Position numbers and translations under genes: made by a program. From contig NZ_JBALCE010000051.1 in the NCBI RefSeq assembly GCF_036919815.1, positions 4,819 to 68,818 on the forward strand: DNA of 64,000 nucleotides. The letters are read 5' to 3'. The notes under the pieces are model-generated. The model ran no database searches and was not told the DNA's origin. It saw only the letters and a list, made by a program, of their open reading frames with translations. Shown here piece after piece: positions 2,598 through 63,858 of the stretch (the stretch's first letter is position 1; the number at the start of each line of letters is the position of its first letter). This stretch comes from Nostoc sp. (GTDB lineage Bacteria > Cyanobacteriota > Cyanobacteriia > Cyanobacteriales > Nostocaceae).

Positions 2598-2649
2598 TTC
2601 TCTACGAGACGCTACGCGAACGGCTTCTCTACGAGACGCTACGCGAACG
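2598..2649 (+). repeat. Two tandem copies of a 25-nt SDR-like unit
   Basis: ttctctacgagacgctacgcgaacg occurs at 2598-2622 and 2625-2649. Related ctacgcg/cgtctcgtagagaag strings recur at 19040-19085, 22601-22743, 31801-31823, 46400-46445 and 56280-56315. Confidence 0.85.
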
Positions 2650-2673
2650 CTCAGTACAAGTGACCAATGACTA

Positions 2674-31617: not shown

Positions 31618-32676
31618 TTACAGCCGATCAATTATCTTGGCATTCTCTGGCAGCTTGGCATCTCGTTGCCCAGCAGCACGCGCCCTAGCTGTGAACAAAC
31701 CAATGGGAGTATTTAATAAATCTACAAGGGTGACTTGACTCGCGATGCCTGCGGTGGTCACTGAGCAGTTCGACAGGCTCACTGTATCACTTTGTGGTTC
31801 GCGCAGCGTCTCGTAGAGAAGTGCGGGCTGCGTCAATGCCTTCTTAATATCCCTTGGTATTTCCTTCAATAACCAACGTACTAAGCGATAGCCGCATTCT
31901 TTGGGTGTAATCTCTCGCATCAAATCGACACCGTGCAGTTCGTGCAGATACCGATTTGAGCGCCCATAGCGCCGCCATTGACTTTGCAGTTCTTGAAGTG
32001 TAGCACGGTGGCGGTGCTGAACGATCGCATTCGCACTAAATTCCAAACGCCCGATGTTTTCTCCCAAAATCCGCCAGCAAATATCTGCATCGCCACCAGT
32101 GGTAAGATAAGGACGAAATAAACCCGCTTTTTCTAAGGCAATGCGTCGAATCGCTAAATTAGCCGTTTGACCATAGGGACGAAAGGAATGGTCAAGGGTA
32201 TGCTTTTGTGACAAAGTTTCTTGACGGTCTGCATATTGTTCTAACAGAGTTGTGCCTGGTAGTGCCAAAATTTCACCAGCGACAATTGCCACTTCTTTCT
32301 TGACAAAAGGCGGAATTAATGAATTTAACCATTGTGGTTGCGGACGACAATCTGCATCGGTAAAAACTATAATTTCACCGCTAGCGGCGCGAATCCCAGT
32401 ATTACGAGCAGCGTATGAGCTTTGAATTTGGTTTTGGCTCAACGGGTAAATTGTAATTGGGCAATTTTCAGCAGATGTTTTCAGAATGGTAAGGGTGCGA
32501 TCGCTACTATTATTGTCCACCAATAAGTACTCTACCCGGTCTTTTGGGTAGGTTTGAGACAACAGACAATTGAGCAAATCTGGTAAATCCGCCTCACCGT
32601 TATAAATAGGAACAACCACCGACACCATTGGTAAAAAGCTGGTGGCGGTGGTTGCATCAACTGGCTGATGATTCAT
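31618..32676 (-). CDS. Family 2 glycosyltransferase carrying an in-frame repeat insertion near its C-terminus
   Basis: GT-A core VSVVVPIYNGEADLPDLLNCLLSQTYP...LLVDNNSSDRT and FTDADCRP. The segment LLYETLREPQSDTVSLSNCSVTTAG is encoded by dispersed-repeat DNA. Confidence 0.8.
   Translation of the reverse strand: MNHQPVDATTATSFLPMVSVVVPIYNGEADLPDLLNCLLSQTYPKDRVEYLLVDNNSSDRTLTILKTSAENCPITIYPLSQNQIQSSYAARNTGIRAASGEIIVFTDADCRPQPQWLNSLIPPFVKKEVAIVAGEILALPGTTLLEQYADRQETLSQKHTLDHSFRPYGQTANLAIRRIALEKAGLFRPYLTTGGDADICWRILGENIGRLEFSANAIVQHRHRATLQELQSQWRRYGRSNRYLHELHGVDLMREITPKECGYRLVRWLLKEIPRDIKKALTQPALLYETLREPQSDTVSLSNCSVTTAGIASQVTLVDLLNTPIGLFTARARAAGQRDAKLPENAKIIDRL
31754..31823 (-). repeat. Small dispersed repeats inside the GT2 coding sequence
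   Basis: 31754-31784 matches 22614-22644 (30/31). 31801-31823 is identical to 22703-22725. Confidence 0.9.
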
Positions 32677-39600: not shown

Positions 39601-40509
39601 TTATCTTGGAAACGTTTTGAGTAAATCATCCCCAGGAATCACGCTAGTATAGAAAACATATTTGCGATTAGCGACATAACGGCGGTCTTGTTTAATAATC
39701 GCCATAAACTCTCTATGTCCGTCACGAGTACGTCCGACTAAACAGCCCGCACTGGCAAGGCGAATATCATTCCGGGGAAAATCAAAGCCGTAATGTTGAT
39801 TCACATAAAAATTATCACCTGTATCAAGTTTGTCGCCAGTCCGTTTAAAATCTTTGTTGAAATCTCTACAAACAGTTATATCCCCAACTTGCACTAATGC
39901 TTCATGAGGCTCTGCTGTGCCGTGGATGCCAACAGCCCAAGCTTTGTATTGTCCAAACTGAATTCTGGCTGCTCCTTTAGGATTCATCGAATTATAAGTG
40001 TAGTATTTCCCTGGTTCTGTAGTAGCTTCCCAGTCTTCTACAATTTTAGGAACGCCATTTACTACTTCAATCACAATCCGGCGATCGTTAAATTCATTCG
40101 GTGCATCATTGTTGAGAGTCCAGTCTGCATTTATACCCTCTACATAAACAATATTGTATTCTTTTTGATTGGTGAATACCTGATAATTTTTAGATTGCAA
40201 GTATTTCACAATCCTACTGGCAATGTCATTACCAAGTTTTAAGGGGGGTTTAGGAAGATCATCTGGTTTGGTTTCAATCAGTTTCTTGGCTGTGATTGCT
40301 CCTAAAAAGTCAGTCTCTCCAGTCTTTGCTAATTCTTGAAATTTTTTGAGAGATATCACAGAAACAGGGCCAAATTTCCCATCGGCTGGAGGTTCTAGCA
40401 AATCTAAGTTGATTAACAATATCTGAATCTGACGAGCCAAGTCTGCGTCATCAGCGATCGCATCAAATCCCCATTTTTCCTCTTTTACCAAGAAATCTTG
40501 TAGTTTCAT
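39601..40509 (-). CDS. Peptidoglycan-binding-domain protein with a C-terminal domain bearing an SxGC motif
   Basis: The N-terminal PG_binding_1-like segment is DGKFGPVSVISLKKFQE. The C-terminal IHGT...ASAGCLVGR is reminiscent of YkuD L,D-transpeptidase catalytic motifs. This is tentative. Confidence 0.45.
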   Translation of the reverse strand: MKLQDFLVKEEKWGFDAIADDADLARQIQILLINLDLLEPPADGKFGPVSVISLKKFQELAKTGETDFLGAITAKKLIETKPDDLPKPPLKLGNDIASRIVKYLQSKNYQVFTNQKEYNIVYVEGINADWTLNNDAPNEFNDRRIVIEVVNGVPKIVEDWEATTEPGKYYTYNSMNPKGAARIQFGQYKAWAVGIHGTAEPHEALVQVGDITVCRDFNKDFKRTGDKLDTGDNFYVNQHYGFDFPRNDIRLASAGCLVGRTRDGHREFMAIIKQDRRYVANRKYVFYTSVIPGDDLLKTFPR

Positions 40510-40909
40510 TATGCACCTACCTTCATTTACTTACTTCTAAGTATAAACATCATTTAAAAAATTGATGTTGTCTGAAACTATACTATTGCCTGAAATATGA
40601 TGTCACAATTTTTACTATTAATTTATGATTCAGCACACAAAAATTCACAGATATTATACTGAATAAAAAACTATTTATTGGCAATATATATTAAATTTTT
40701 TTCCGTAATATGGTTTGAGTTCAGAGGTTGAATGGTGAACGATTTTGTAGGGGCGCAGGAGTCTGCGATGATGTCTAAGGGCGGGCTAGGCAAACGCACA
40801 TTGCCTCAATCCAATCCTTAATACAGGCTAAATTATTAATTAGCTCAATTTCTCTGCTGCGCGTCCAAGCAGCAAATCTTTGTCAGGCATCGCCTCTGTA
40901 AAACCCGAA

Positions 40910-43900
40910 ATGACTAACGAAGAACTGCTGGAAATTATTGAACAAGCTGCTAGAGACAAGGCGGCAACATTAGTCCTTTATGCCGAAGGCTTAACAACCC
41001 TGCCAGCAGAGATTGGTCAACTCATAAACCTCAATACGCTTTACCTCTACTCGAGTCAACTAACGATACTGCCAGCAGAGATTGGTCAACTCTCCAACCT
41101 CAGTAAGCTTTACCTCAGCAACAATCAACTGACGACGCTGCCAGCAGAGATTGGTGAGTTGACCAATCTCAACGTGCTTTATCTTGGCAGCAATAAATTA
41201 ACGACGCTGCCAGGGGAGATTGGTAAACTCTCCAACCTCAGTAAGCTTGACCTCAGCTATAATCAACTGACGATGCTGCCAGTGGAGATTGGTCAACTCT
41301 CTAACCTCGACTGGCTTGTAATATCGGACAATCAACTAACGACACTGCCAATAGAGATTGGTCAACTCTCCAATCTCAGCAACCTTAACCTCAACAACAA
41401 TCAACTGACGACCCTGCCAGCAGAAATTGGTCAACTCTCCAACCTCAGAGAGGTTCACCTCCACTCAAATCAACTTACGACGTTGCCAGCAGAGATTGGT
41501 CAACTCTCCAATCTCATCTACCTTGACCTCAGTAATAATCAACTGACGACCCTGCTAGTGGAGATTGGTCAACTCTCTAACCTCGACTGGCTTTTAATAT
41601 CGGACAATCAACTAACGACATTGCCAATAGAGATTGGTCAACTCTCCAATCTCAGCAACCTTAACCTCAACAACAATCAACTGACGACCCTGCCAGCAGA
41701 AATTGGTCAACTCTCCAACCTCAGAGAGGTTCACCTCCACTCAAATCAACTTACGACGTTGCCAGCAGAGATTGGTCAACTCTCCAATCTCATCTACCTT
41801 GACCTCAGTAATAATCAACTGACGACGCTACCAACAGAAATTGGTCAACTCATCAAACTCAGTGCGCTTTACCTCAGTAATAATCAACTGATGATACTGC
41901 TAGCAGAAATTGGTCAACTCATCAAACTCAGTGCGCTTGACCTCAGTAACAATCAACTGACAACACTGCCAGCAGAAATTGGTCAACTCTCCAATCTCAA
42001 CTGGCTTCACCTCAGCAACAATCAACTGACGACACTCCTAGCAGAGATTAGTCAACTCACTAACATCAGTGAGCTTGATCTCAACAACAATCCACTGACG
42101 ATGCTACCAGCAGAAATTGGTCAACTTACTAAATTAGAAGAACTCAAGCTCAGTTATAGTAGACTAGAAACTTTGCCTGTAGAAATATGGAAACTCACCA
42201 ACTTGACTCTACTTGACCTACGTGATGGACGAATAAAAATACTGCCTGATGGAATTGAGCAGCTTTTTGAACTGAGCAGGTTAAACCTTCGCAACAACCT
42301 TCTAGACACAGTACCTAAGGAAATCTGGAAACTCACCAAGCTTAAAAGATTAGACCTAAGAGGCAACAAACTTCCTATTCCACCTGAAATTTTAGGAGTG
42401 GCGGATCTTCGGAGAAATCCTGGCGATCCATCTACGATTCTCAATTATTTTTTCCAACTTCAGAAAGAAGAAAAAAAACCTCTCAATGAAGCCAAAATGC
42501 TACTAGTTGGTCAGGGTAGTGTTGGTAAAACCTCTCTTGTTAAACGGCTAATCGATAACTGCTACAATCCCCACGAAGGCAAGAGGGAAGGCATCAATAT
42601 TAGAAACTGGCAGATTCCTGTCAACGATCAGTTAATCCGGCTCAACGTGTGGGACTTTGGTGGACAAGAAATCATGCACGCCACCCACCAGTTCTTTCTG
42701 ACTAAACGCAGCCTTTATTTGCTAGTGCTTGATTCTCGCTTAGATGAACTGCAAAACAAACTAGAATACTGGCTGAAGATTATCCAGAGTTTTAGCAACG
42801 ATTCCCCTATTTTGATCGTTGGCAACAAAATTGACCAACATCCCCTCGACATCGATCAGCGCGGTTTGTGCCAGAAATACTCCGCTATTAAAGGCATCAT
42901 GCCTATATCCTGTCAGACTGGGGAAGGTCTAGAGCAATTGCACTCAGCTATTACTAACCAAATTGCCAACTTAGATCACATCCACGATCCATTATCCCAA
43001 AGCTGGTTCCAGGTCAAAACCCGCTTGGAACAAATGGAACAAGACTATATCCCCTATAGTGAATACGAAAGCCTATCCCATGAGGAGCAGGTTAGTGATC
43101 CATTAAGTCAAACTACACTGATTGAACTTTTGCATCAACTTGGTATTGTTCTAAATTTCAGGGATGATCCGCGTTTGGCAGAAATGGGAGTTTTAAATCC
43201 AGAATGGGTCACAAATGGAGTTTACAAGATTCTCAACGATAATCGGCTGATGACTGAATTTCGGGGTATTCTTGATCGCACTCAACTTAACCGGATTCTG
43301 GATAACTCCCGCTATCCTGGCAATAAGCCATTATTCATTGTGGATATGATGCGGAAGTTTGAACTCTGCTTTCCACTAGAAGATGGCAACGGCGATCGCT
43401 TCCTGATCCCTGACTTATTGCCTAAAGAAGAACCCGCCACAGGGGATTGGGAAAGTGGTTTGGCATTCCAGTATCATTACAGCGTCCTCCCCAACAGTAT
43501 CATCTCTCGCTTTATTGTACGGATGCACCACCACAGCGATCGCCAGACTTGGTGGCGTAGTGGCATCGTTCTCAAACATCGTGGTAATCGGGCACTTGTC
43601 AAAAGCGATCAGGAAGACCGCAAAATCTTCATCATGATCAGCGGCTCATCCTCCACTCGACGAGAATTGCTAGCAATGATCCGTTCTCAGTTTTATGCCA
43701 TCCACCAAACTATTAAAGGGTTACTACCAGAAGAAAAAGTACCGATTCCGGGACACCCCAATATTGTTGTGGACTACGAAAACCTGCTCGTTTATGAAGA
43801 GAAGAACTTACCTATCATTCCTCCAGGTTTGATAGAACCATTCAATGCTCAACAACTGCTTGACGGCATCGAACTCAAAAAAGAACGACAGGAACGACAA

Positions 43901-43987
43901 CGTGAACAGGATCAAGAAGAAAATTGCGTGGTAAATCGTTTACCTACACCAGAATTCGAGAAGGAAATTTTTCTCTCTTATGCTTAG
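40910..43987 (+). CDS. ROCO protein: ~20 leucine-rich repeats, Roc GTPase, COR domain; ends at a TAG inside the first strand of a TIR domain
   Basis: 23-aa LRR units LxxLPxEIGQLxNLxxLxLxxNQLTT. Roc P-loop GQGSVGKTS (42509-42535), DFGGQE and GNKID. The COR-like region follows. The terminal residues are KEIFLSYA. Confidence 0.8.
41281..41832 (+). repeat. Near-perfect tandem duplication of a 276-bp (four-LRR) block
   Basis: 41281-41556 and 41557-41832 differ at only a few positions (e.g. cttgtaatat vs cttttaatat). 276 nt = 4 x 69 nt. Confidence 0.9.
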
Positions 43988-44536
43988 GGTGGAGAAAGTG
44001 AGCAATTTGTCAATCAACTGGATGAGATTTTGCAGGCAAAAGGAATCAAAATCATCCGCGATAAACGCGATTTGGGCTACAAAAGACTAATTAAAGCCTT
44101 CATGGAACGGATTGGACGCGGTAAATGTGCGTTAGCGTAGCTCGTCGTAGACATCGCAGTTATTAGTGACAAGTATTTAAAATTTCCCAATTGTATGTTT
44201 GAGCTAGTGCAAATTGCTAAAAACGGAGAATTTTATGATCGAATTTTCCCTATTGTGTTAGCAGATGCAAAAATATATGATCCTGTTGATCGTGCAGATT
44301 ATGTAATCCATTGGGAAGCAGAAATTCAAAAACTAGAAACAAAAATCAAACTATTGTCTTCTTCTGCAAACGTGCCAAGCTTAACAAGGTCAATCAACGA
44401 ATATACAGAAATTAGAGCCACCATTGATGAACTGGCGGATATCCTTCAAAATATGAACACGCTTACCCCTGAGATCCACAGTGAATCAGACTTTGAGCCA
44501 TTGCTGAATGCGATCGCACACCGTTTAGATGAGTAA
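43988..44536 (+). pseudogene. TIR domain in frame with the ROCO gene, separated by TAG 43985-43987 and containing a second TAG at 44138-44140
   Basis: Same frame as 40910-43987. It reads GGESEQFVNQLDEILQAKGIKIIRDKRDLGY...GRGKC[ALA*LVVDIA]VISDKYLKFPNCMFELVQIAK. The bracketed part lies in a 29-nt repeat-like insert (44129-44157). Confidence 0.65.
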
Positions 44537-44645
44537 AATTAAATTATTGGTGAGGTTGACAGGTAGAAACATCGCCTTTTGAGGTCAAGCGATGTCTCTA
44601 CGCCTACACACTTTTTACTTGATTTGCGGATGGGCATCTTGTCCA

Positions 44646-46364
44646 TCACAACAAACTAAGGTTAGGCGTAGCTATACTTTTAGTCTGGTAAGCATTTTTG
44701 ACACCAACCCAATTACTAGCAATTGGCATTCGCCAACCAGTTCCAAAAGCGCGATCGGTGATTTTTAAACCGGGGGGTGCTTGTCGCCGTTTAAATTCAG
44801 CCCGCGCCACCATTTGGATTACTCGGTCTACAATTACCGGATCGTGACCTGCTGCAACAATTTGCGTTGCTGATTGATGATTATTAATCAGGCGTTGCAA
44901 AATATCGTCCAAAATTTCGTAAGGCGGTAGAGAGTCTTGATCAACTTGACCTGGTTTGAGTTCGGCGCTGGGTGGTTTAGTTAGGACGTTTTGCGGGATG
45001 ATTTCATTATTGCGATTTAACCAGTGGCAAACTGAATAAACACGGGTTTTAGGAACATCTGCAATTACCGCTAATCCGCCATTCATATCGCCGTAGAGGG
45101 TACAGTAACCGACAGCCATTTCTGACTTGTTACCAGTAGATAAAAGGAGATAGCCAAATTTATTAGCGATCGCCATTAATAAATTACCGCGAATCCGAGA
45201 TTGTATATTCTCTTCTGCCAGTCCAAACTCTGTACCTGCAAACAAATCCCCTAAAGTTTGATCAAAGCCTTGCATTAACTCCCCAATTGGTAAAAGATTA
45301 GTCTTAATCCCCAAATTTTCGGCTAATGCCTCAGCATCACTAATGGAATGCTCAGAACTGTAAGGGGAAGGCATGAGAACACCCAGGACATTTTCTTTAC
45401 CAAGTGCCGCAGCTGCGATCGCAGCTACTATTGCAGAGTCAATCCCACCACTTAAACCCAACACTACTTTAGAAAAGCGACATTTACGAGCGTAATCTCG
45501 GACTCCTAAAACCAAAGCTTGCCAAATTTCTTCATCTTCCGATTCATACACAGGTGCTATAGAACCCAGATGCAAATCTCGTTGCGTCTCATCAAATTCA
45601 ACTACCACTAAATCTGTGTCAAAGCCACGGGCGCGACAGATAATTTCACCTTGACGATTCAAGGCAAAACTACGCCCATCAAAAATTAGGTCATCATTTC
45701 CCCCAACCTGATTAGCATAAATAATCGGTTGTTGAAAACGCACTGCACTATACTTAAGAATGGTTTCTCGAAACTGCTGCTTGCTGAAACTGTAGGGCGA
45801 AGCAGACAAATTTACAATCAAATCTACACCGAGAATTGCTAAGTCAGCAATTGGATTCACTGTATAACTACGTTTGCCCCAAAATTCCTCATCGTTCCAT
45901 AAATCTTCGCAAATAGTTACGCCAATATGAATATTATCTAGAGTGAAATAATTAGCTTGCAATCCTGGTTCAAAATAGCGACGTTCATCAAATACATCGT
46001 AAGTAGGCAAAAGTCGCTTGTGAAAAAGTTGCTTTACCTTGCCATTCTCTAACAAAGCCATGCTATTAAATAAAGTTTTACCGCCAGTAATAGACGCTTC
46101 GAGGTTCTGTTCAACAGTTCCTACGAACACAGCTAAATTTGGTGGTAAATCTTGGGCTAACTTCTCTAAAGTCATGCCCATTGCTGACACAAAACTAGGA
46201 TTTAGTAATAAATCTCTTGGTGGATAGCCACACAAAGAAAGCTCTGGTGTCAACAACAAACGTACACCGCTAGATGCTGCTTGTTGTGCCGCCTCCAGGA
46301 TTTTTTGGGCATTTAAAAGCAAATCACCAATTGTCGGATTAATTTGAGCGATCGCTATTTTCAT
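44646..46364 (-). CDS. nadE: Glutamine-dependent NAD+ synthetase
   Basis: N-terminal CN-hydrolase domain (MKIAIAQINPTIGDL...TPELSLCGYPP...ICEDLW) plus NAD synthetase domain (VVLGLSGGIDSA). Confidence 0.9.
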   Translation of the reverse strand: MKIAIAQINPTIGDLLLNAQKILEAAQQAASSGVRLLLTPELSLCGYPPRDLLLNPSFVSAMGMTLEKLAQDLPPNLAVFVGTVEQNLEASITGGKTLFNSMALLENGKVKQLFHKRLLPTYDVFDERRYFEPGLQANYFTLDNIHIGVTICEDLWNDEEFWGKRSYTVNPIADLAILGVDLIVNLSASPYSFSKQQFRETILKYSAVRFQQPIIYANQVGGNDDLIFDGRSFALNRQGEIICRARGFDTDLVVVEFDETQRDLHLGSIAPVYESEDEEIWQALVLGVRDYARKCRFSKVVLGLSGGIDSAIVAAIAAAALGKENVLGVLMPSPYSSEHSISDAEALAENLGIKTNLLPIGELMQGFDQTLGDLFAGTEFGLAEENIQSRIRGNLLMAIANKFGYLLLSTGNKSEMAVGYCTLYGDMNGGLAVIADVPKTRVYSVCHWLNRNNEIIPQNVLTKPPSAELKPGQVDQDSLPPYEILDDILQRLINNHQSATQIVAAGHDPVIVDRVIQMVARAEFKRRQAPPGLKITDRAFGTGWRMPIASNWVGVKNAYQTKSIATPNLSLL

Positions 46365-46497
46365 TGTATTTAGTCATTAGTCATTGGTTATTGGTCACTT
46401 GTACTGAGCGTTGTCGTTGGCGCAGCCTCTCCTAGAGAAGTATTGGTCATTGGTAAATGCTCAAAATAACTTATTCTGGACTATGCGTAACAATTAC

Positions 46498-47244
46498 TTA
46501 AATAAACACCAAAGGTTTATCTTTTAAGGGAGCAAAAGCTTCAGCGTCAAACTTATACAAACTAGCTGGACGACCGGCTCCCCGTGATACCTTAATTCCG
46601 GTATCGCATAAAAAACCTAACTTGAGTAGACGCGCCCGAAAATTAGAATAATCGGAAAAATTGTCACCTAAAACTGTGGCGTATAACTGATATAAATCAT
46701 TCAAGGTGAACATTTCTGGCAAGACTTCAAAAGCCACCGGACTATACTCTAATTTATTTCGCAACCGCCTGTGTCCATAGGCCAGAATTTCATTATGGTC
46801 AAAAGCTAATTGCGGCACTTCTTTTACCGGATACCAAGCTATACCAGTCATGCGATCGGCAATCAATTCGGCTTCCTCAAATCGCACTAAAGCAAAGTAA
46901 CTAACTGATAGATAACGTACATTATAACTATCGGTTGCTTCCCGTGGATCGCGATTCGGCCCGCCAAAGGTATACAGTTGTTCTAAATAGAGATTGTTGA
47001 CCTTAATTTTCTCTGCCATAATGCGATAGGCGGCATCTTCTAAAGACTCTCCTGGACGCACCAAAGTACCGGGAAGACTCCAATGATTTAAAAATGGTTC
47101 TTGCTGTCGCATTACTAGTAGAACTAACAACCGATTTTGGGCAGTATCTACAGAAAAAATTACATTATCAACACCAACCTTGAAATCGGCCAAAGGTTGT
47201 TGGTTTAGCGGAGTTGGTATCTTTTTTGGGAAATGTCCTGGCAT
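46498..47244 (-). CDS. nrtR: NrtR-family Nudix-related transcriptional regulator of NAD metabolism
   Basis: Degenerate Nudix box GTLVRPGESLEDAAYRIMAEKIKV. C-terminal winged-helix segment FTLNDLYQLYATVLG...NFRARLLKLGFL...GRPASLYKF. It lies inside an NAD operon and overlaps the end of nadD by 40 nt. Confidence 0.65.
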   Translation of the reverse strand: MPGHFPKKIPTPLNQQPLADFKVGVDNVIFSVDTAQNRLLVLLVMRQQEPFLNHWSLPGTLVRPGESLEDAAYRIMAEKIKVNNLYLEQLYTFGGPNRDPREATDSYNVRYLSVSYFALVRFEEAELIADRMTGIAWYPVKEVPQLAFDHNEILAYGHRRLRNKLEYSPVAFEVLPEMFTLNDLYQLYATVLGDNFSDYSNFRARLLKLGFLCDTGIKVSRGAGRPASLYKFDAEAFAPLKDKPLVFI

Positions 47245-47807
47245 TCGTACAAATGCTCTCGATTAATATAGGCAATTACAGGGGCTGTGAGGGCTTCAGA
47301 ATCTCCATGTTCGCGGTAGGCTGTTGAGGAAACATCTAGACCGGTCAGACTAGCGATCGCAATCTTCCCTCCCAACTTCTGCACTACCTCTGAACTAGAC
47401 TCATCTATTGCATATCCGGGTCGCGGCACGATCAGTAGTTGCACTTCTTGTAACAAATCTTCAATGCGATACCAACGTGGTAGCTGATTGAGTAAATCTG
47501 AACCAATAATCAACGTCAATTCAGCGTCCTCACCCCAAGTAAGCTTCGCTTTTTCCACTGTTTCCAGTGTTCTGAAGCTACTCAATTCTTGTTCCAAAGC
47601 AATATTATGCCGTGGCGAATCTATATCCGCAATCAACAGTTGCAGCATTGCCGCCCGATGCTCTAAGGGTGTTTGATGGGACTTAAATGGATTATCTGCT
47701 GCCCAAACCGCTACCCAATCATAACGCTCAGACAACCAACTCAGAATTTTTTGATGTCCAGCAGTTGGTGGATCGGCACTAGTACCAAACAAAGCAATTC
47801 TCATCAT
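47205..47807 (-). CDS. nadD: Nicotinate-nucleotide adenylyltransferase
   Basis: RIALFGTSADPPTAGHQKIL is a (T/H)xGH nucleotidyltransferase motif. The start codon lies 1 nt after the pncB stop codon. Confidence 0.75.
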   Translation of the reverse strand: MMRIALFGTSADPPTAGHQKILSWLSERYDWVAVWAADNPFKSHQTPLEHRAAMLQLLIADIDSPRHNIALEQELSSFRTLETVEKAKLTWGEDAELTLIIGSDLLNQLPRWYRIEDLLQEVQLLIVPRPGYAIDESSSEVVQKLGGKIAIASLTGLDVSSTAYREHGDSEALTAPVIAYINREHLYECQDISQKRYQLR

Positions 47808-47808
47808 C

Positions 47809-49218
47809 TTACTTTGCGTCCTTGGCGGTTCGTTTTTTAGTTTCTTCAGTCAATACTCGTAACTGTTCAGAAATCTCCACCTCTACAGCTACAGGATGAT
47901 CCAAACGCCGTGTCTGTTCTGGCAAACTGGCAACTGAGGCGGCGGTACGCTGACGAATTGTTGCCAAAGTCTCTAACGGCTGCACCCGTTGACCCTCCTG
48001 CATTACCAATTGCAACAAAGGTTCTTCTTCCAGAGGAATTTCATCTAAAAGTCCCAACCTGTCTGCTTTTACCTTACCTCCGGTAAACGAGCGAAAAATC
48101 TGCTTGCGCCCTGGATAAGTAACCTTACCACTCGACTGTTTCATCACTGGGATGCCATCAATGTCCACGAGTTTATAAACTCCATTTACAGGCGAACCCG
48201 TAACTAATCGCGTTCCCAATCCGTAACCATCAATCTCGGCCCCAGCAGCTTTTAATCTGGCAATTTCCCACTCATCTAAGTCGCCACTAGCAAAAATTGG
48301 CACACCGGGAAGGAGCGATCGCACCTGTTTTGATAAGGTAACTAAATCTCCTGAGTCCAATCTCACTCCTGTTAATTCCATTTCCCCGGAATTTACTTTT
48401 TGGGCTAATCGCTGGGCAGCAGCAATGGTATCGTAAGTATCAATCAGCAATGGCGCACCCGGAAAATATCGATGAAATGCACTAAAAGCTTGTTCCTCAG
48501 TGCCTTCTATTGCTGACAACGCCATAACCAGGGCGTGTGCCATTGTACCACTTGGCTTTTGTCCCAGTTGTAGCGCTGCTAACACATTGGAAGTGGAATC
48601 TAGCCCACCTGCCAACGCCGCCCGCGCCGCCCACAAGGAAGCCTGGGGACTAAATGCTCGTCGTGTCCCAAATTCTAAAAGTGTTGCTTTCTCCCCCGCT
48701 ACATCCCGCAACCGTGCTGCTTTTGTGGCAATCAAAGTTTGGTAATTAATCGTATTTAGCAGGTAAGTTTCCACTAGTTGCGCTTGCCAAAGAGGTGCTT
48801 CCACCCGCAACAGTGGTTGATTGGCAAAGACGGCTGTCCCCTCGGGTACTGCCCAAACATCACCTGTAAACTTTCCCTGGGCTAAAAGTGACCAAAAGCG
48901 ATCGCTTGCTTGAGCAAAAATTCCCGTTGCCTGTAATGCCGCAATTTGCGAAGGATTAAAGCGAAATTTGGCTAAATATTCCAATGCCTGCGTCAGCCCC
49001 ATTGCAATTAAATAACCAAAACCCTCTGGTAATCGCCTCACAGACAACTCAAAGCTTGCCCGTCTTTGTTCTATACCTTCGCCTGTGTAACAAGCTGCCA
49101 TCGTCAACTGATAAAGATCCGTCAGTAAGCTGTAATCATCTCCAGAGAGGTTTAGTTCCTGGTTTTGCTGGCTTTGCTGTTTATGTACATAATCCAAATC
49201 TGGCAAAAGAGTTGTCAT
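47809..49218 (-). CDS. pncB: Nicotinate phosphoribosyltransferase
   Basis: LLTDLYQLTMAACY..., EFGTRRA and GTMAHALV are motifs of the NAPRTase family. Confidence 0.8.
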   Translation of the reverse strand: MTTLLPDLDYVHKQQSQQNQELNLSGDDYSLLTDLYQLTMAACYTGEGIEQRRASFELSVRRLPEGFGYLIAMGLTQALEYLAKFRFNPSQIAALQATGIFAQASDRFWSLLAQGKFTGDVWAVPEGTAVFANQPLLRVEAPLWQAQLVETYLLNTINYQTLIATKAARLRDVAGEKATLLEFGTRRAFSPQASLWAARAALAGGLDSTSNVLAALQLGQKPSGTMAHALVMALSAIEGTEEQAFSAFHRYFPGAPLLIDTYDTIAAAQRLAQKVNSGEMELTGVRLDSGDLVTLSKQVRSLLPGVPIFASGDLDEWEIARLKAAGAEIDGYGLGTRLVTGSPVNGVYKLVDIDGIPVMKQSSGKVTYPGRKQIFRSFTGGKVKADRLGLLDEIPLEEEPLLQLVMQEGQRVQPLETLATIRQRTAASVASLPEQTRRLDHPVAVEVEISEQLRVLTEETKKRTAKDAK

Positions 49219-56188: not shown

Positions 56189-56625
56189 TCCCCACTCACA
56201 AGAGAATCGCTGGACGTGTGGAAGCCACTTGACTTTTTTTAGGCAGTGGAGGAAACACGCCACGAGTGGTTTTAACCCTAAGCGTAGTCGTTGGCGCAGC
56301 CTCTCGTAGAGAAGGGTGAAAAATGTTAAAATTAAAGTGTGAGTAGGAATAACCATCTGCGCTAAGAAGTGTTTTGTAAGGAGTGACCCCTGATTTATCT
56401 CGTACCTGTACAAGTTACAGCCCTGGGTAAACAAGTAATGGGAAAACATGGAGCGTAATACCACTAAATATTGATGGACTCGGAAAGCAGTAGGAAAAAG
56501 AAAAGTAAGCGTAATTGCAATACCTCTTCTAGGGGTAGTTGTTTTGAGCGTCTAGAGGGATATTTGACTATCCCTTTTAAGCAACTCTTAAAGAATCTGC
56601 GTGTCTTTAGACCGCAGAGTGTCAA

Positions 56626-63788: not shown

Positions 63789-63858
63789 ATTTTGACTGCT
63801 GACAACTAAAGATTAATTTTAGGCGTAGGCGTAGCCCGTTGTAGACATCGCTTTCTCT

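Follow-up and report, generated by a model that had tools for sequence, protein, structure and literature searches.

Proteins that combine an N-terminal array of leucine-rich repeats (LRRs), an AP-GTPase (Roc) domain, a COR domain and a C-terminal effector have been described as predicted counter-invader proteins (Kaur, Iyer, Burroughs & Aravind 2021, eLife, PMC8195603). The same study lists at least 24 C-terminal effector domains, TIR among them, and reports that such AP-GTPase–COR proteins are enriched in multicellular bacteria, for example in cyanobacteria. The gene investigated here is found on the forward strand of a 64-kb stretch of Nostoc DNA (contig NZ_JBALCE010000051.1 of assembly GCF_036919815.1). 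We refer to this whole stretch as the window, and all positions are window coordinates. The gene shares with the systems of Kaur et al. the order of rapidly evolving N-terminal LRRs, AP-GTPase/Roc, COR and a variable C-terminal effector. The description of those systems is purely computational, whereas the gene in the window has a broken effector and no multi-gene context. The LRR–Roc–COR–TIR architecture is not new, nor is it rare; it is a known predicted kind, and its member in the window is broken. Very probably, a conserved Nostoc gene for a ROCO-class predicted counter-invader sensor, in the order LRR–Roc GTPase–COR-A/COR-B–TIR, is present here as an effector-dead allele.

Results

One reading frame interrupted by two amber codons

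An earlier interpretation of the window, made from its letters alone (hereafter the sequence-only reading), had proposed a single frame from 40910 to 44536 that is broken by just two TAG codons and encodes about 20 tandem 23-residue LRRs, a Roc small GTPase and a COR-like region. Translation and domain searches agree with it on each of these points. The frame extends on the forward strand from the ATG at 40910 to the TAA at 44534–44536; its internal stops are the TAG codons at 43985–43987 and 44138–44140, with no others, and it is otherwise perfectly preserved over 1208 codons. A mechanical list of open reading frames (ORFs) gives two pieces, 40880–43987, which contains the conserved ATG at 40910, and 44195–44536. 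The surviving ORF of 1025 codons (40910–43987; WP_334905888.1) encodes LRR–Roc–COR and the first TIR strand and ends at the first amber codon; this 1025-residue LRR–Roc–COR product is still encoded. The leftover ORF of 113 amino acids (aa; 44195–44536, forward strand; hypothetical protein WP_334905889.1) corresponds to the C-terminal third of the TIR module, and most of the TIR sheet is missing from it. The NCBI annotation treats the two as separate proteins, so that the public record shows two ordinary proteins where the disrupted gene lies. Elsewhere within the window we find no second TIR or Roco copy.

The switch region is well defined by Pfam and by structure-database matches. In the 1025-aa ORF, Pfam places Roc at aa 529–642 (7e-30; 42494–42835), COR-A at aa 697–837 (3.8e-40; 42998–43420) and COR-B at aa 850–986 (1.1e-33; 43457–43867). 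The Roc domain is Ras-like and has intact G1, G3 and G4 motifs (P-loop GQGSVGKTS, switch II DFGGQE and GNKID, respectively), and TIGR00231 small_GTP scores above its cut-off. COR follows Roc directly on the C-terminal side, which is the arrangement expected of a Roco protein. Compared with solved Roco proteins, Roc–COR matches 4wnr at 4.5e-92, CtRoco from C. tepidum at 1e-81 and LRRK2 at 5e-22.

The predicted sensor part consists of 20 consecutive 23-aa LRR units (L-T-T-L-P-x-E-I-G-Q-L-x-N-L...) at aa 28–487 (40991–42370), with an LRR_8 match of 3.4e-60 in the same ORF; Tandem Repeats Finder reports a period of 69 nt and 16.3 copies. A block of 276 bp, comprising four LRR units, has recently been duplicated in tandem (41278–41553 and 41554–41829, 272 of 276 positions identical). 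Orthologues with a DNA identity of about 93% differ in their number of LRRs, with proteins of 993–1126 aa versus 1201 aa for the window gene when the stops are read through and a 21-nt insert, described below, is removed. In three of the window's units the conserved Pro of L-P-x-E-I-G has become Leu (CCA to CTA; 41555, 41900 and 42038), a change found in none of 16 comparable units of the orthologous locus L127 and likewise absent from the orthologue P0121.

Four lesions in the TIR module

When the stops are read through, the tail of the frame matches Pfam TIR_2 at 43967–44302 with 35.9 bits, against a gathering score of 28, so that the search to which the sequence-only reading had tied its TIR assignment comes out in its favor. 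That reading had also taken KEIFLSYA as the first TIR strand; EIFLSYA indeed sits before the first TAG and in the frame of COR. The first amber codon (43985–43987) occupies the place of the Trp in SYAWGG, which all 62 aligned family members have and which is encoded by TGG in the DNA of the orthologous loci L001, L002 and L003. A single G-to-A transition accounts for the stop, as the sequence-only reading had surmised. The Glu of NCMFEL, encoded by GAG at 44201–44203, was expected for TIR NADase activity and is kept: it is invariant in 62 homologues and aligns with Glu86 of Roq1, the catalytic residue of that protein.

Two further changes are specific to the window. At 44084–44086 the codon AGA puts Arg in place of a Gly (GYKGLIK) that is conserved in more than 90% of homologues, and at 44183–44185 TTT puts Phe in place of a Ser (YLKSPNC) that is conserved to the same degree. 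Together with the two stops these are four independent lesions inside 200 bp of the TIR. Counting as window-specific those changes at sites where the other three orthologues agree, the TIR head has one synonymous and four non-synonymous changes (W to stop, T to I, G to R and S to F), while the non-repeat part of Roc–COR has 27 synonymous and seven non-synonymous ones, a degree of constraint like that in intact orthologues. The ratios of non-synonymous to synonymous changes (4:1 versus 7:27) differ with p = 0.017 in Fisher's test.

An uninterrupted, translatable TIR is not present in the window, given the two in-frame TAG codons and the G-to-R and S-to-F replacements at near-invariant columns, and the TIR effector cannot be made from this allele. 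The sequence-only reading had called the effector recently disabled or split off. Of the two terms, the first agrees better with the data than the second: the leftover 113-aa ORF is without most of the TIR sheet.

A 21-nt element inside a HIP1 octamer

The second amber codon (44138–44140) was brought in by a small insert. The sequence-only reading had placed this stop in a 29-nt inserted repeat (44129–44157) that matches 63823–63851 at 25 of 29 positions. The match is as described, and the stop does lie within a small inserted dispersed repeat; however, the insert itself measures 21 nt, and the remaining 8 nt belong to its split target. Alignment with orthologues and comparison with the dispersed family show a HIP1 octamer split into GCG (44129–44131) and ATCGC (44153–44157) around the 21-nt element TTAGCGTAGCTCGTCGTAGAC (44132–44152). 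The insert amounts to seven codons, is in frame, and is missing from L001, L002 and L003; the empty site in L001 and L002 is an intact HIP1 octamer, GCGATCGC. The copy at 63823–63851 (forward strand) has the same layout, GCG-TAGGCGTAGCCCGTTGTAGAC-ATCGC, with one mismatch relative to the family consensus. The window contains 77 HIP1 sites in its 64 kb.

According to publications citing Elhai et al. (2008, Genome Res 18:1484), SDR5 is a small dispersed repeat of 21 nt that is located between the third and fourth bases of HIP1 and is confined to the Nostocaceae lineage. As far as these published descriptions go, SDR5 and the insert have in common the length of 21 nt, the position in a split HIP1 site and the many dispersed copies in Nostocales. 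By that description the insert fits an SDR5-type mini-element, with a consensus that was derived here from a scan; a text search of the literature found no paper that prints the element's 18-mer. In the scan, which used the pattern GCG-N3-GCGTAGCNCGTNGTAGAC-ATCGC and one genome per species, at least 119 stretches match, almost all from Nostoc or other Nostocales, and they hold at least 127 copies. Among the matches listed, all 127 copies have different flanks and 111 of them read TAGGCGTAGCCCGTCGTAGAC. The TIR insert differs from the derived consensus at three of 21 positions, and none of the 127 listed genome copies is identical to its 21-mer.

The family consensus contains TAG in two of its three forward frames and in none of the reverse frames. 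Therefore, an element of this kind in this orientation, placed in a HIP1 site that is read as GCG-ATC-GCx, was bound to stop translation. Of the three positions at which insert and consensus differ, two (within 44132–44140) change the first in-frame TAG of the element to TTA, while the second TAG stays; this may have come about by chance or by partial selection, or it may be a trait of the donor variant. With its flanks, the 21-nt element folds as RNA no better than shuffled sequences (z from −0.02 to 1.2).

A second family of short dispersed repeats, TTCGCGTAGCGTCTCGTAGAGAA, is represented in the window at 2620–2670 (reverse strand), 31798–31818 and 56291–56311 (both forward strand), outside of HIP1 sites. 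Its core (GCGTAGC…CGTAGA) is related to the SDR5-type element, and two of its copies stand in tandem at 2620 and 2647.

Intact orthologues and two classes of TIR alleles

Five close Nostoc orthologues are intact (P0121–P0124 and L127), and the four of them that were examined as DNA or protein carry TGG or Trp at the first amber position and are without the inserted segment. P0121 (Nostoc muscorum FACHB-395, 1108 aa), P0122, P0123 and P0124 are 87–88% identical to the window gene over the full Roc–COR–TIR query, and L127, a metagenome contig, carries an intact orthologue of 1106 aa in a syntenic position. Synteny with the window is also found in L001, L002 and L125. More broadly, LRR, Roc, COR and TIR occur together in about 40 of the best 120 matches, mostly from cyanobacteria, at identities down to 46%. 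In the comparison with orthologues that the sequence-only reading had proposed as a check, intact single polypeptides cross the junction, and the downstream frame is not an unrelated gene.

The TIR modules at this locus differ more than the rest of the gene. After strand D (approximately 44260–44470) the window TIR is 53–68% identical to L001, L002 and L003, compared with about 93% to those loci over the rest of the gene. This "type A" tail, with long helices after strand D, is 83–97% identical to L127, whose whole TIR is of type A. In Roc–COR, up to about position 43900, the window follows L127, with a sliding identity of mostly 92–98% (range 83–100%). Between 43900 and 44260, the segment in which all the lesions lie, it follows the type B sequences of L001 and L002 at 88–98%, versus 69–87% to L127. 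From about 44260 on, and into the adjacent gene nadE, the window follows L127 again. Because the pattern of identity to L127 and to L001/L002 reverses at 43900–44260, we call the TIR a chimera: judged from these alignments, two divergent allele classes segregate at this one locus, and the window's TIR is a product of recombination between them.

A stand-alone TIR gene next to the orthologue in L125 was considered as donor of the divergent tail and rejected, as its product is of another TIR family (FFSYAHKDE…; weak EAD9 match). Among the relatives there are also LRR–Roc–COR proteins without an effector, P0144 and P0149, encoded at another conserved locus with about 130 bp to the next gene. We rejected the possibility that these are decayed TIR fusions; the short distance to the next gene and the different, conserved locus indicate a separate paralogue.

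The upstream HIP1 site as possible source of the insert

The exact 29-mer formed by the insert and the two HIP1 halves has three matches in the metagenome collection. In L126 and in L127 the match precedes an orthologous LRR–Roc–COR gene by about 150 bp and has the opposite orientation; the third match, in L128, has an unrelated context. The upstream HIP1 site is empty (GCGATCGC) in L002 and L125, and in L003, L126 and L127 it is filled by a 21-mer identical to the TIR insert. In the window the corresponding site (40765–40797, reverse strand, approximately 115–145 bp before the start codon) is filled by a probable diverged SDR5 copy. The rare 21-mer variant is common to the TIR insert and to the upstream site of orthologues, which suggests that the insert came from the locus's own upstream element. 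Relative to the copy in L003, L126 and L127, the window's upstream copy has about five substitutions, one extra base and a 3-nt duplication, a fast divergence that is restricted to the element, as its flanks are well conserved among the seven aligned loci.

The approximately 110 nt between this site and the start codon (40800–40909) are almost invariant across the seven orthologous loci and may be a regulatory leader. They contain a hairpin at 40855–40874, TGCTGC-GCGTCCAA-GCAGCA, in which the loop varies and the stem is kept. A promoter and terminator scan of 40500–44700 gave counts near the expectation from shuffled sequences.

Fold of the TIR module and its other contexts

In sequence searches of the PDB, the best matches of the TIR module are TIRs of the plant TNL proteins Roq1, L6, RPV1 and RUN1. 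The flavodoxin-like TIR fold is borne out by the homologue P0006 (74% identity): its AlphaFold model has a pLDDT of 80, and every top Foldseek match of this model is a TIR of a plant TNL, the highest TM being 0.74. The bacterial TIRs AbTir, BtpA, PdTIR and SPARTA rank below the plant TNL TIRs for P0006 (corresponding to 43967–44470), and the match takes in the long helices after strand D.

The same TIR module is also found in stand-alone proteins of 190–320 aa with N-terminal effector-associated domains (EADs) PF19955, PF19960, PF19961 and PF19964 (P0028, P0030, P0039, P0044, P0045, P0068, P0109 and others). It appears to be a shuffled effector cassette of several NTPase-centered systems. In P0003 (Trichormus sp. 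M33_DOE_039, 242 aa), what looks like the last part of an LRR array with its C-terminal cap is joined straight to this TIR module, without Roc–COR; the protein may have arisen by deletion or be a fragment from a faulty gene call.

Genomic neighborhood

The TIR end of the gene converges with a cluster of NAD genes on the reverse strand (44646–49218), which encodes a glutamine-dependent NAD synthetase (nadE, 572 aa), an NrtR-type Nudix regulator (248 aa), a cytidylyltransferase-like protein of the NadD/NadR type (200 aa) and NAPRTase (469 aa). We considered the NAD salvage operon as a functional partner and rejected it: the adjacency is kept in L001, L002 and L127 and is not found in L003, L123 and L124, and it probably reflects local synteny. 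Between the ROCO-TIR gene and nadE lies a variable gap. It measures about 80–110 bp in the window (44537–44645) and in L127; in L001 (11330–12800) and L002 (11120–12210) it contains 20-nt tandem repeats and two small ORFs; and in L125 (10380–11850) it contains the different stand-alone TIR gene, of 247 aa with a weak EAD9 match. No partner effector gene adjoins the ROCO gene in the window.

Discussion

Alternative explanations

The preferred reading, a conserved ROCO-TIR gene whose effector is dead in this allele, has to be weighed against several alternatives. The stops might be artefacts of sequencing, of assembly or of a population consensus, the organism's own gene being intact. These sequences are present in one assembly alone, and Roc–COR is under clear purifying selection. 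However, a genuine biological element sits here in its canonical target, and orthologues with an empty site exist, which is not a typical assembly error, and the two radical substitutions at near-invariant TIR residues would leave an artefact to account for four independent lesions within 200 bp. We consider an artefact very unlikely. Another way to rescue the full-length protein, with a seven-residue insertion, would be to read the amber codons through, by a suppressor tRNA or in a programmed fashion. That both stops are TAG and that the frame is intact over the remainder of its 1208 codons could be expected under this explanation. Nevertheless, there is no tRNA gene of any kind in the window, the insert falls directly before TIR strand C, and the G-to-R and S-to-F replacements argue for relaxed constraint; we know of no amber suppression in Nostoc, and read-through is hardly conceivable. 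The NCBI annotation of two proteins, and the many members of this TIR family that stand alone with 190–320 aa, could be taken to mean that the downstream frame is a separate and unrelated gene whose apparent fusion is coincidental. This is refuted by the five intact orthologues that encode one polypeptide across the junction, and by the position of the first TIR strand, EIFLSYA, before the first TAG and in the COR frame; we give the idea practically no credence.

A more serious alternative is that the truncated LRR–Roc–COR protein of 1025 residues still functions without its effector, as a sensor or regulator with effectors in trans or as a dominant modulator, and that loss of the TIR was tolerated or even favored, for example as the removal of a self-toxic NADase. 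Natural paralogues without an effector (76–78% identical) are conserved elsewhere, at a locus that leaves no space for the remains of a TIR; stand-alone proteins of the same TIR family exist, some with EAD adaptor domains; and Roc–COR, with its 27 synonymous against seven non-synonymous changes, is as constrained as in the intact orthologues. However, this signal of constraint is summed over the full length of the branch, and the larger part of that length may be older than the lesions. The Pro-to-Leu changes in three LRR units, against none of 16 in L127 and P0121, hint at incipient decay, and a partner effector next to the gene is missing from the window. On balance we regard a functional effector-less Roco as unlikely, while giving it real weight.

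Some observations weigh against the reading of the locus as an effector-dead immune sensor. Both stops are known from one deposited assembly, and each of the two ORF products has a single member on a single contig in the database. Five changes in total underlie the non-synonymous excess in the TIR head, and since Roc–COR looks fully constrained by the same counts, the term pseudogene may cover the effector alone. The locus is not in a recognizable defense island, and its neighbors in more distant orthologues are housekeeping genes. Matches in PADLOC are weak and at the level of the TIR domain alone (25–34 bits; bSEFIR, PDC-S66 and SAVED_TIR), and there is no full-length match to any system protein model of PADLOC-DB v2. 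NAD+ cleavage, GTPase gating and an anti-phage role are predicted from homology. Literature searches found no experimental study of any ROCO-TIR protein, in line with the sequence-only reading, which knew of no experimental characterization of this combination.

A possible mechanism and its loss

Taking the locus as the effector-dead allele of a ROCO-TIR receptor, we can sketch how the intact protein most probably works. The fast-changing LRR array would recognize a ligand derived from an invader. This recognition would shift the nucleotide state of the Roc GTPase and the COR-mediated monomer/dimer state, as in bacterial Roco proteins, and the shift would bring the C-terminal, plant-TNL-like TIRs together. 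The assembled TIRs would then cleave NAD+, either to deplete it or to produce a signal, and would stop the infected cell of the filament. In this genome, a G-to-A change has made the invariant Trp of strand A an amber codon; an SDR5-type element of 21 nt has entered the HIP1 octamer in the TIR between bases 3 and 4 and added a second one; Gly-to-Arg and Ser-to-Phe replacements have altered near-invariant residues; and the TIR itself is a recombinant of two divergent allele classes.

A bolder proposal, which we put forward tentatively and think somewhat doubtful, is that the intact alleles are GTPase-switched, NLR-like receptors with a plant-TNL-type TIR and that the locus records an ongoing arms race, in which two deeply divergent classes of TIR alleles recombine at one syntenic locus, LRR blocks duplicate, and the effector was lost when the locus's own promoter-proximal SDR5 copy of 21 nt was copied 3.3 kb downstream, inverted, into a HIP1 site within the gene. 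If this were true, then the locus would preserve both donor and target of one of the smallest known mobile elements, a pairing that is rare. As it stands, it is a clean case of a gene inactivated by a 21-nt SDR5-type element, for which empty-site orthologues and a plausible nearby donor are known, and the insertion bears on the question of how such tiny elements move. The intact orthologues P0121–P0124 and L127, together with this natural loss-of-function allele, form a comparison set for NADase activity, GTPase gating and cyanophage resistance.

Comparison with known systems

The closest solved structures are those of CtRoco (3dpu, 6hlu and 8r4b) and of the Roco protein 4wnr, which have the LRR–Roc–COR core in common with the window gene at a very strong similarity of 1e-81 to 4.5e-92. 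Because Roc–COR is so similar to these proteins, we assume for it a GTP-dependent switch between monomer and dimer. The orthologues of the window gene differ from CtRoco and 4wnr in adding a C-terminal TIR. To our knowledge, the Roco proteins that have been studied structurally carry no TIR effector and have no known biological role.

Validated bacterial defenses of the NLR-like or TIR type, such as the Avs/bNACHT STAND proteins, Thoeris ThsB, TIR-SAVED and SPARTA, follow a common principle in which sensing leads to TIR assembly and to NAD+ consumption or signaling. The family of the window gene would share this principle but is predicted to use a GTPase as its switch in place of the STAND ATPase. 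ROCO-TIR proteins represent a predicted class of bacterial immune receptor in which a Ras-like GTPase replaces the STAND ATPase of NLRs.

In sequence and predicted fold, the TIR is closest to those of the plant TIR-NLRs (Roq1, RPP1, RUN1, L6 and RPS4), with the position of the catalytic Glu in common, although the identity is just 15–20%. The plant proteins also share the logic of LRR sensor, nucleotide switch and TIR. However, the domain order is reversed, the LRRs being N-terminal and the TIR C-terminal in the window gene family, and the switch of the plant proteins is an NB-ARC/STAND ATPase, whereas that of the window gene family is a Ras-like GTPase with COR. The closeness of a cyanobacterial TIR to those of plant TNLs may bear on the origin of plant-type TIRs.

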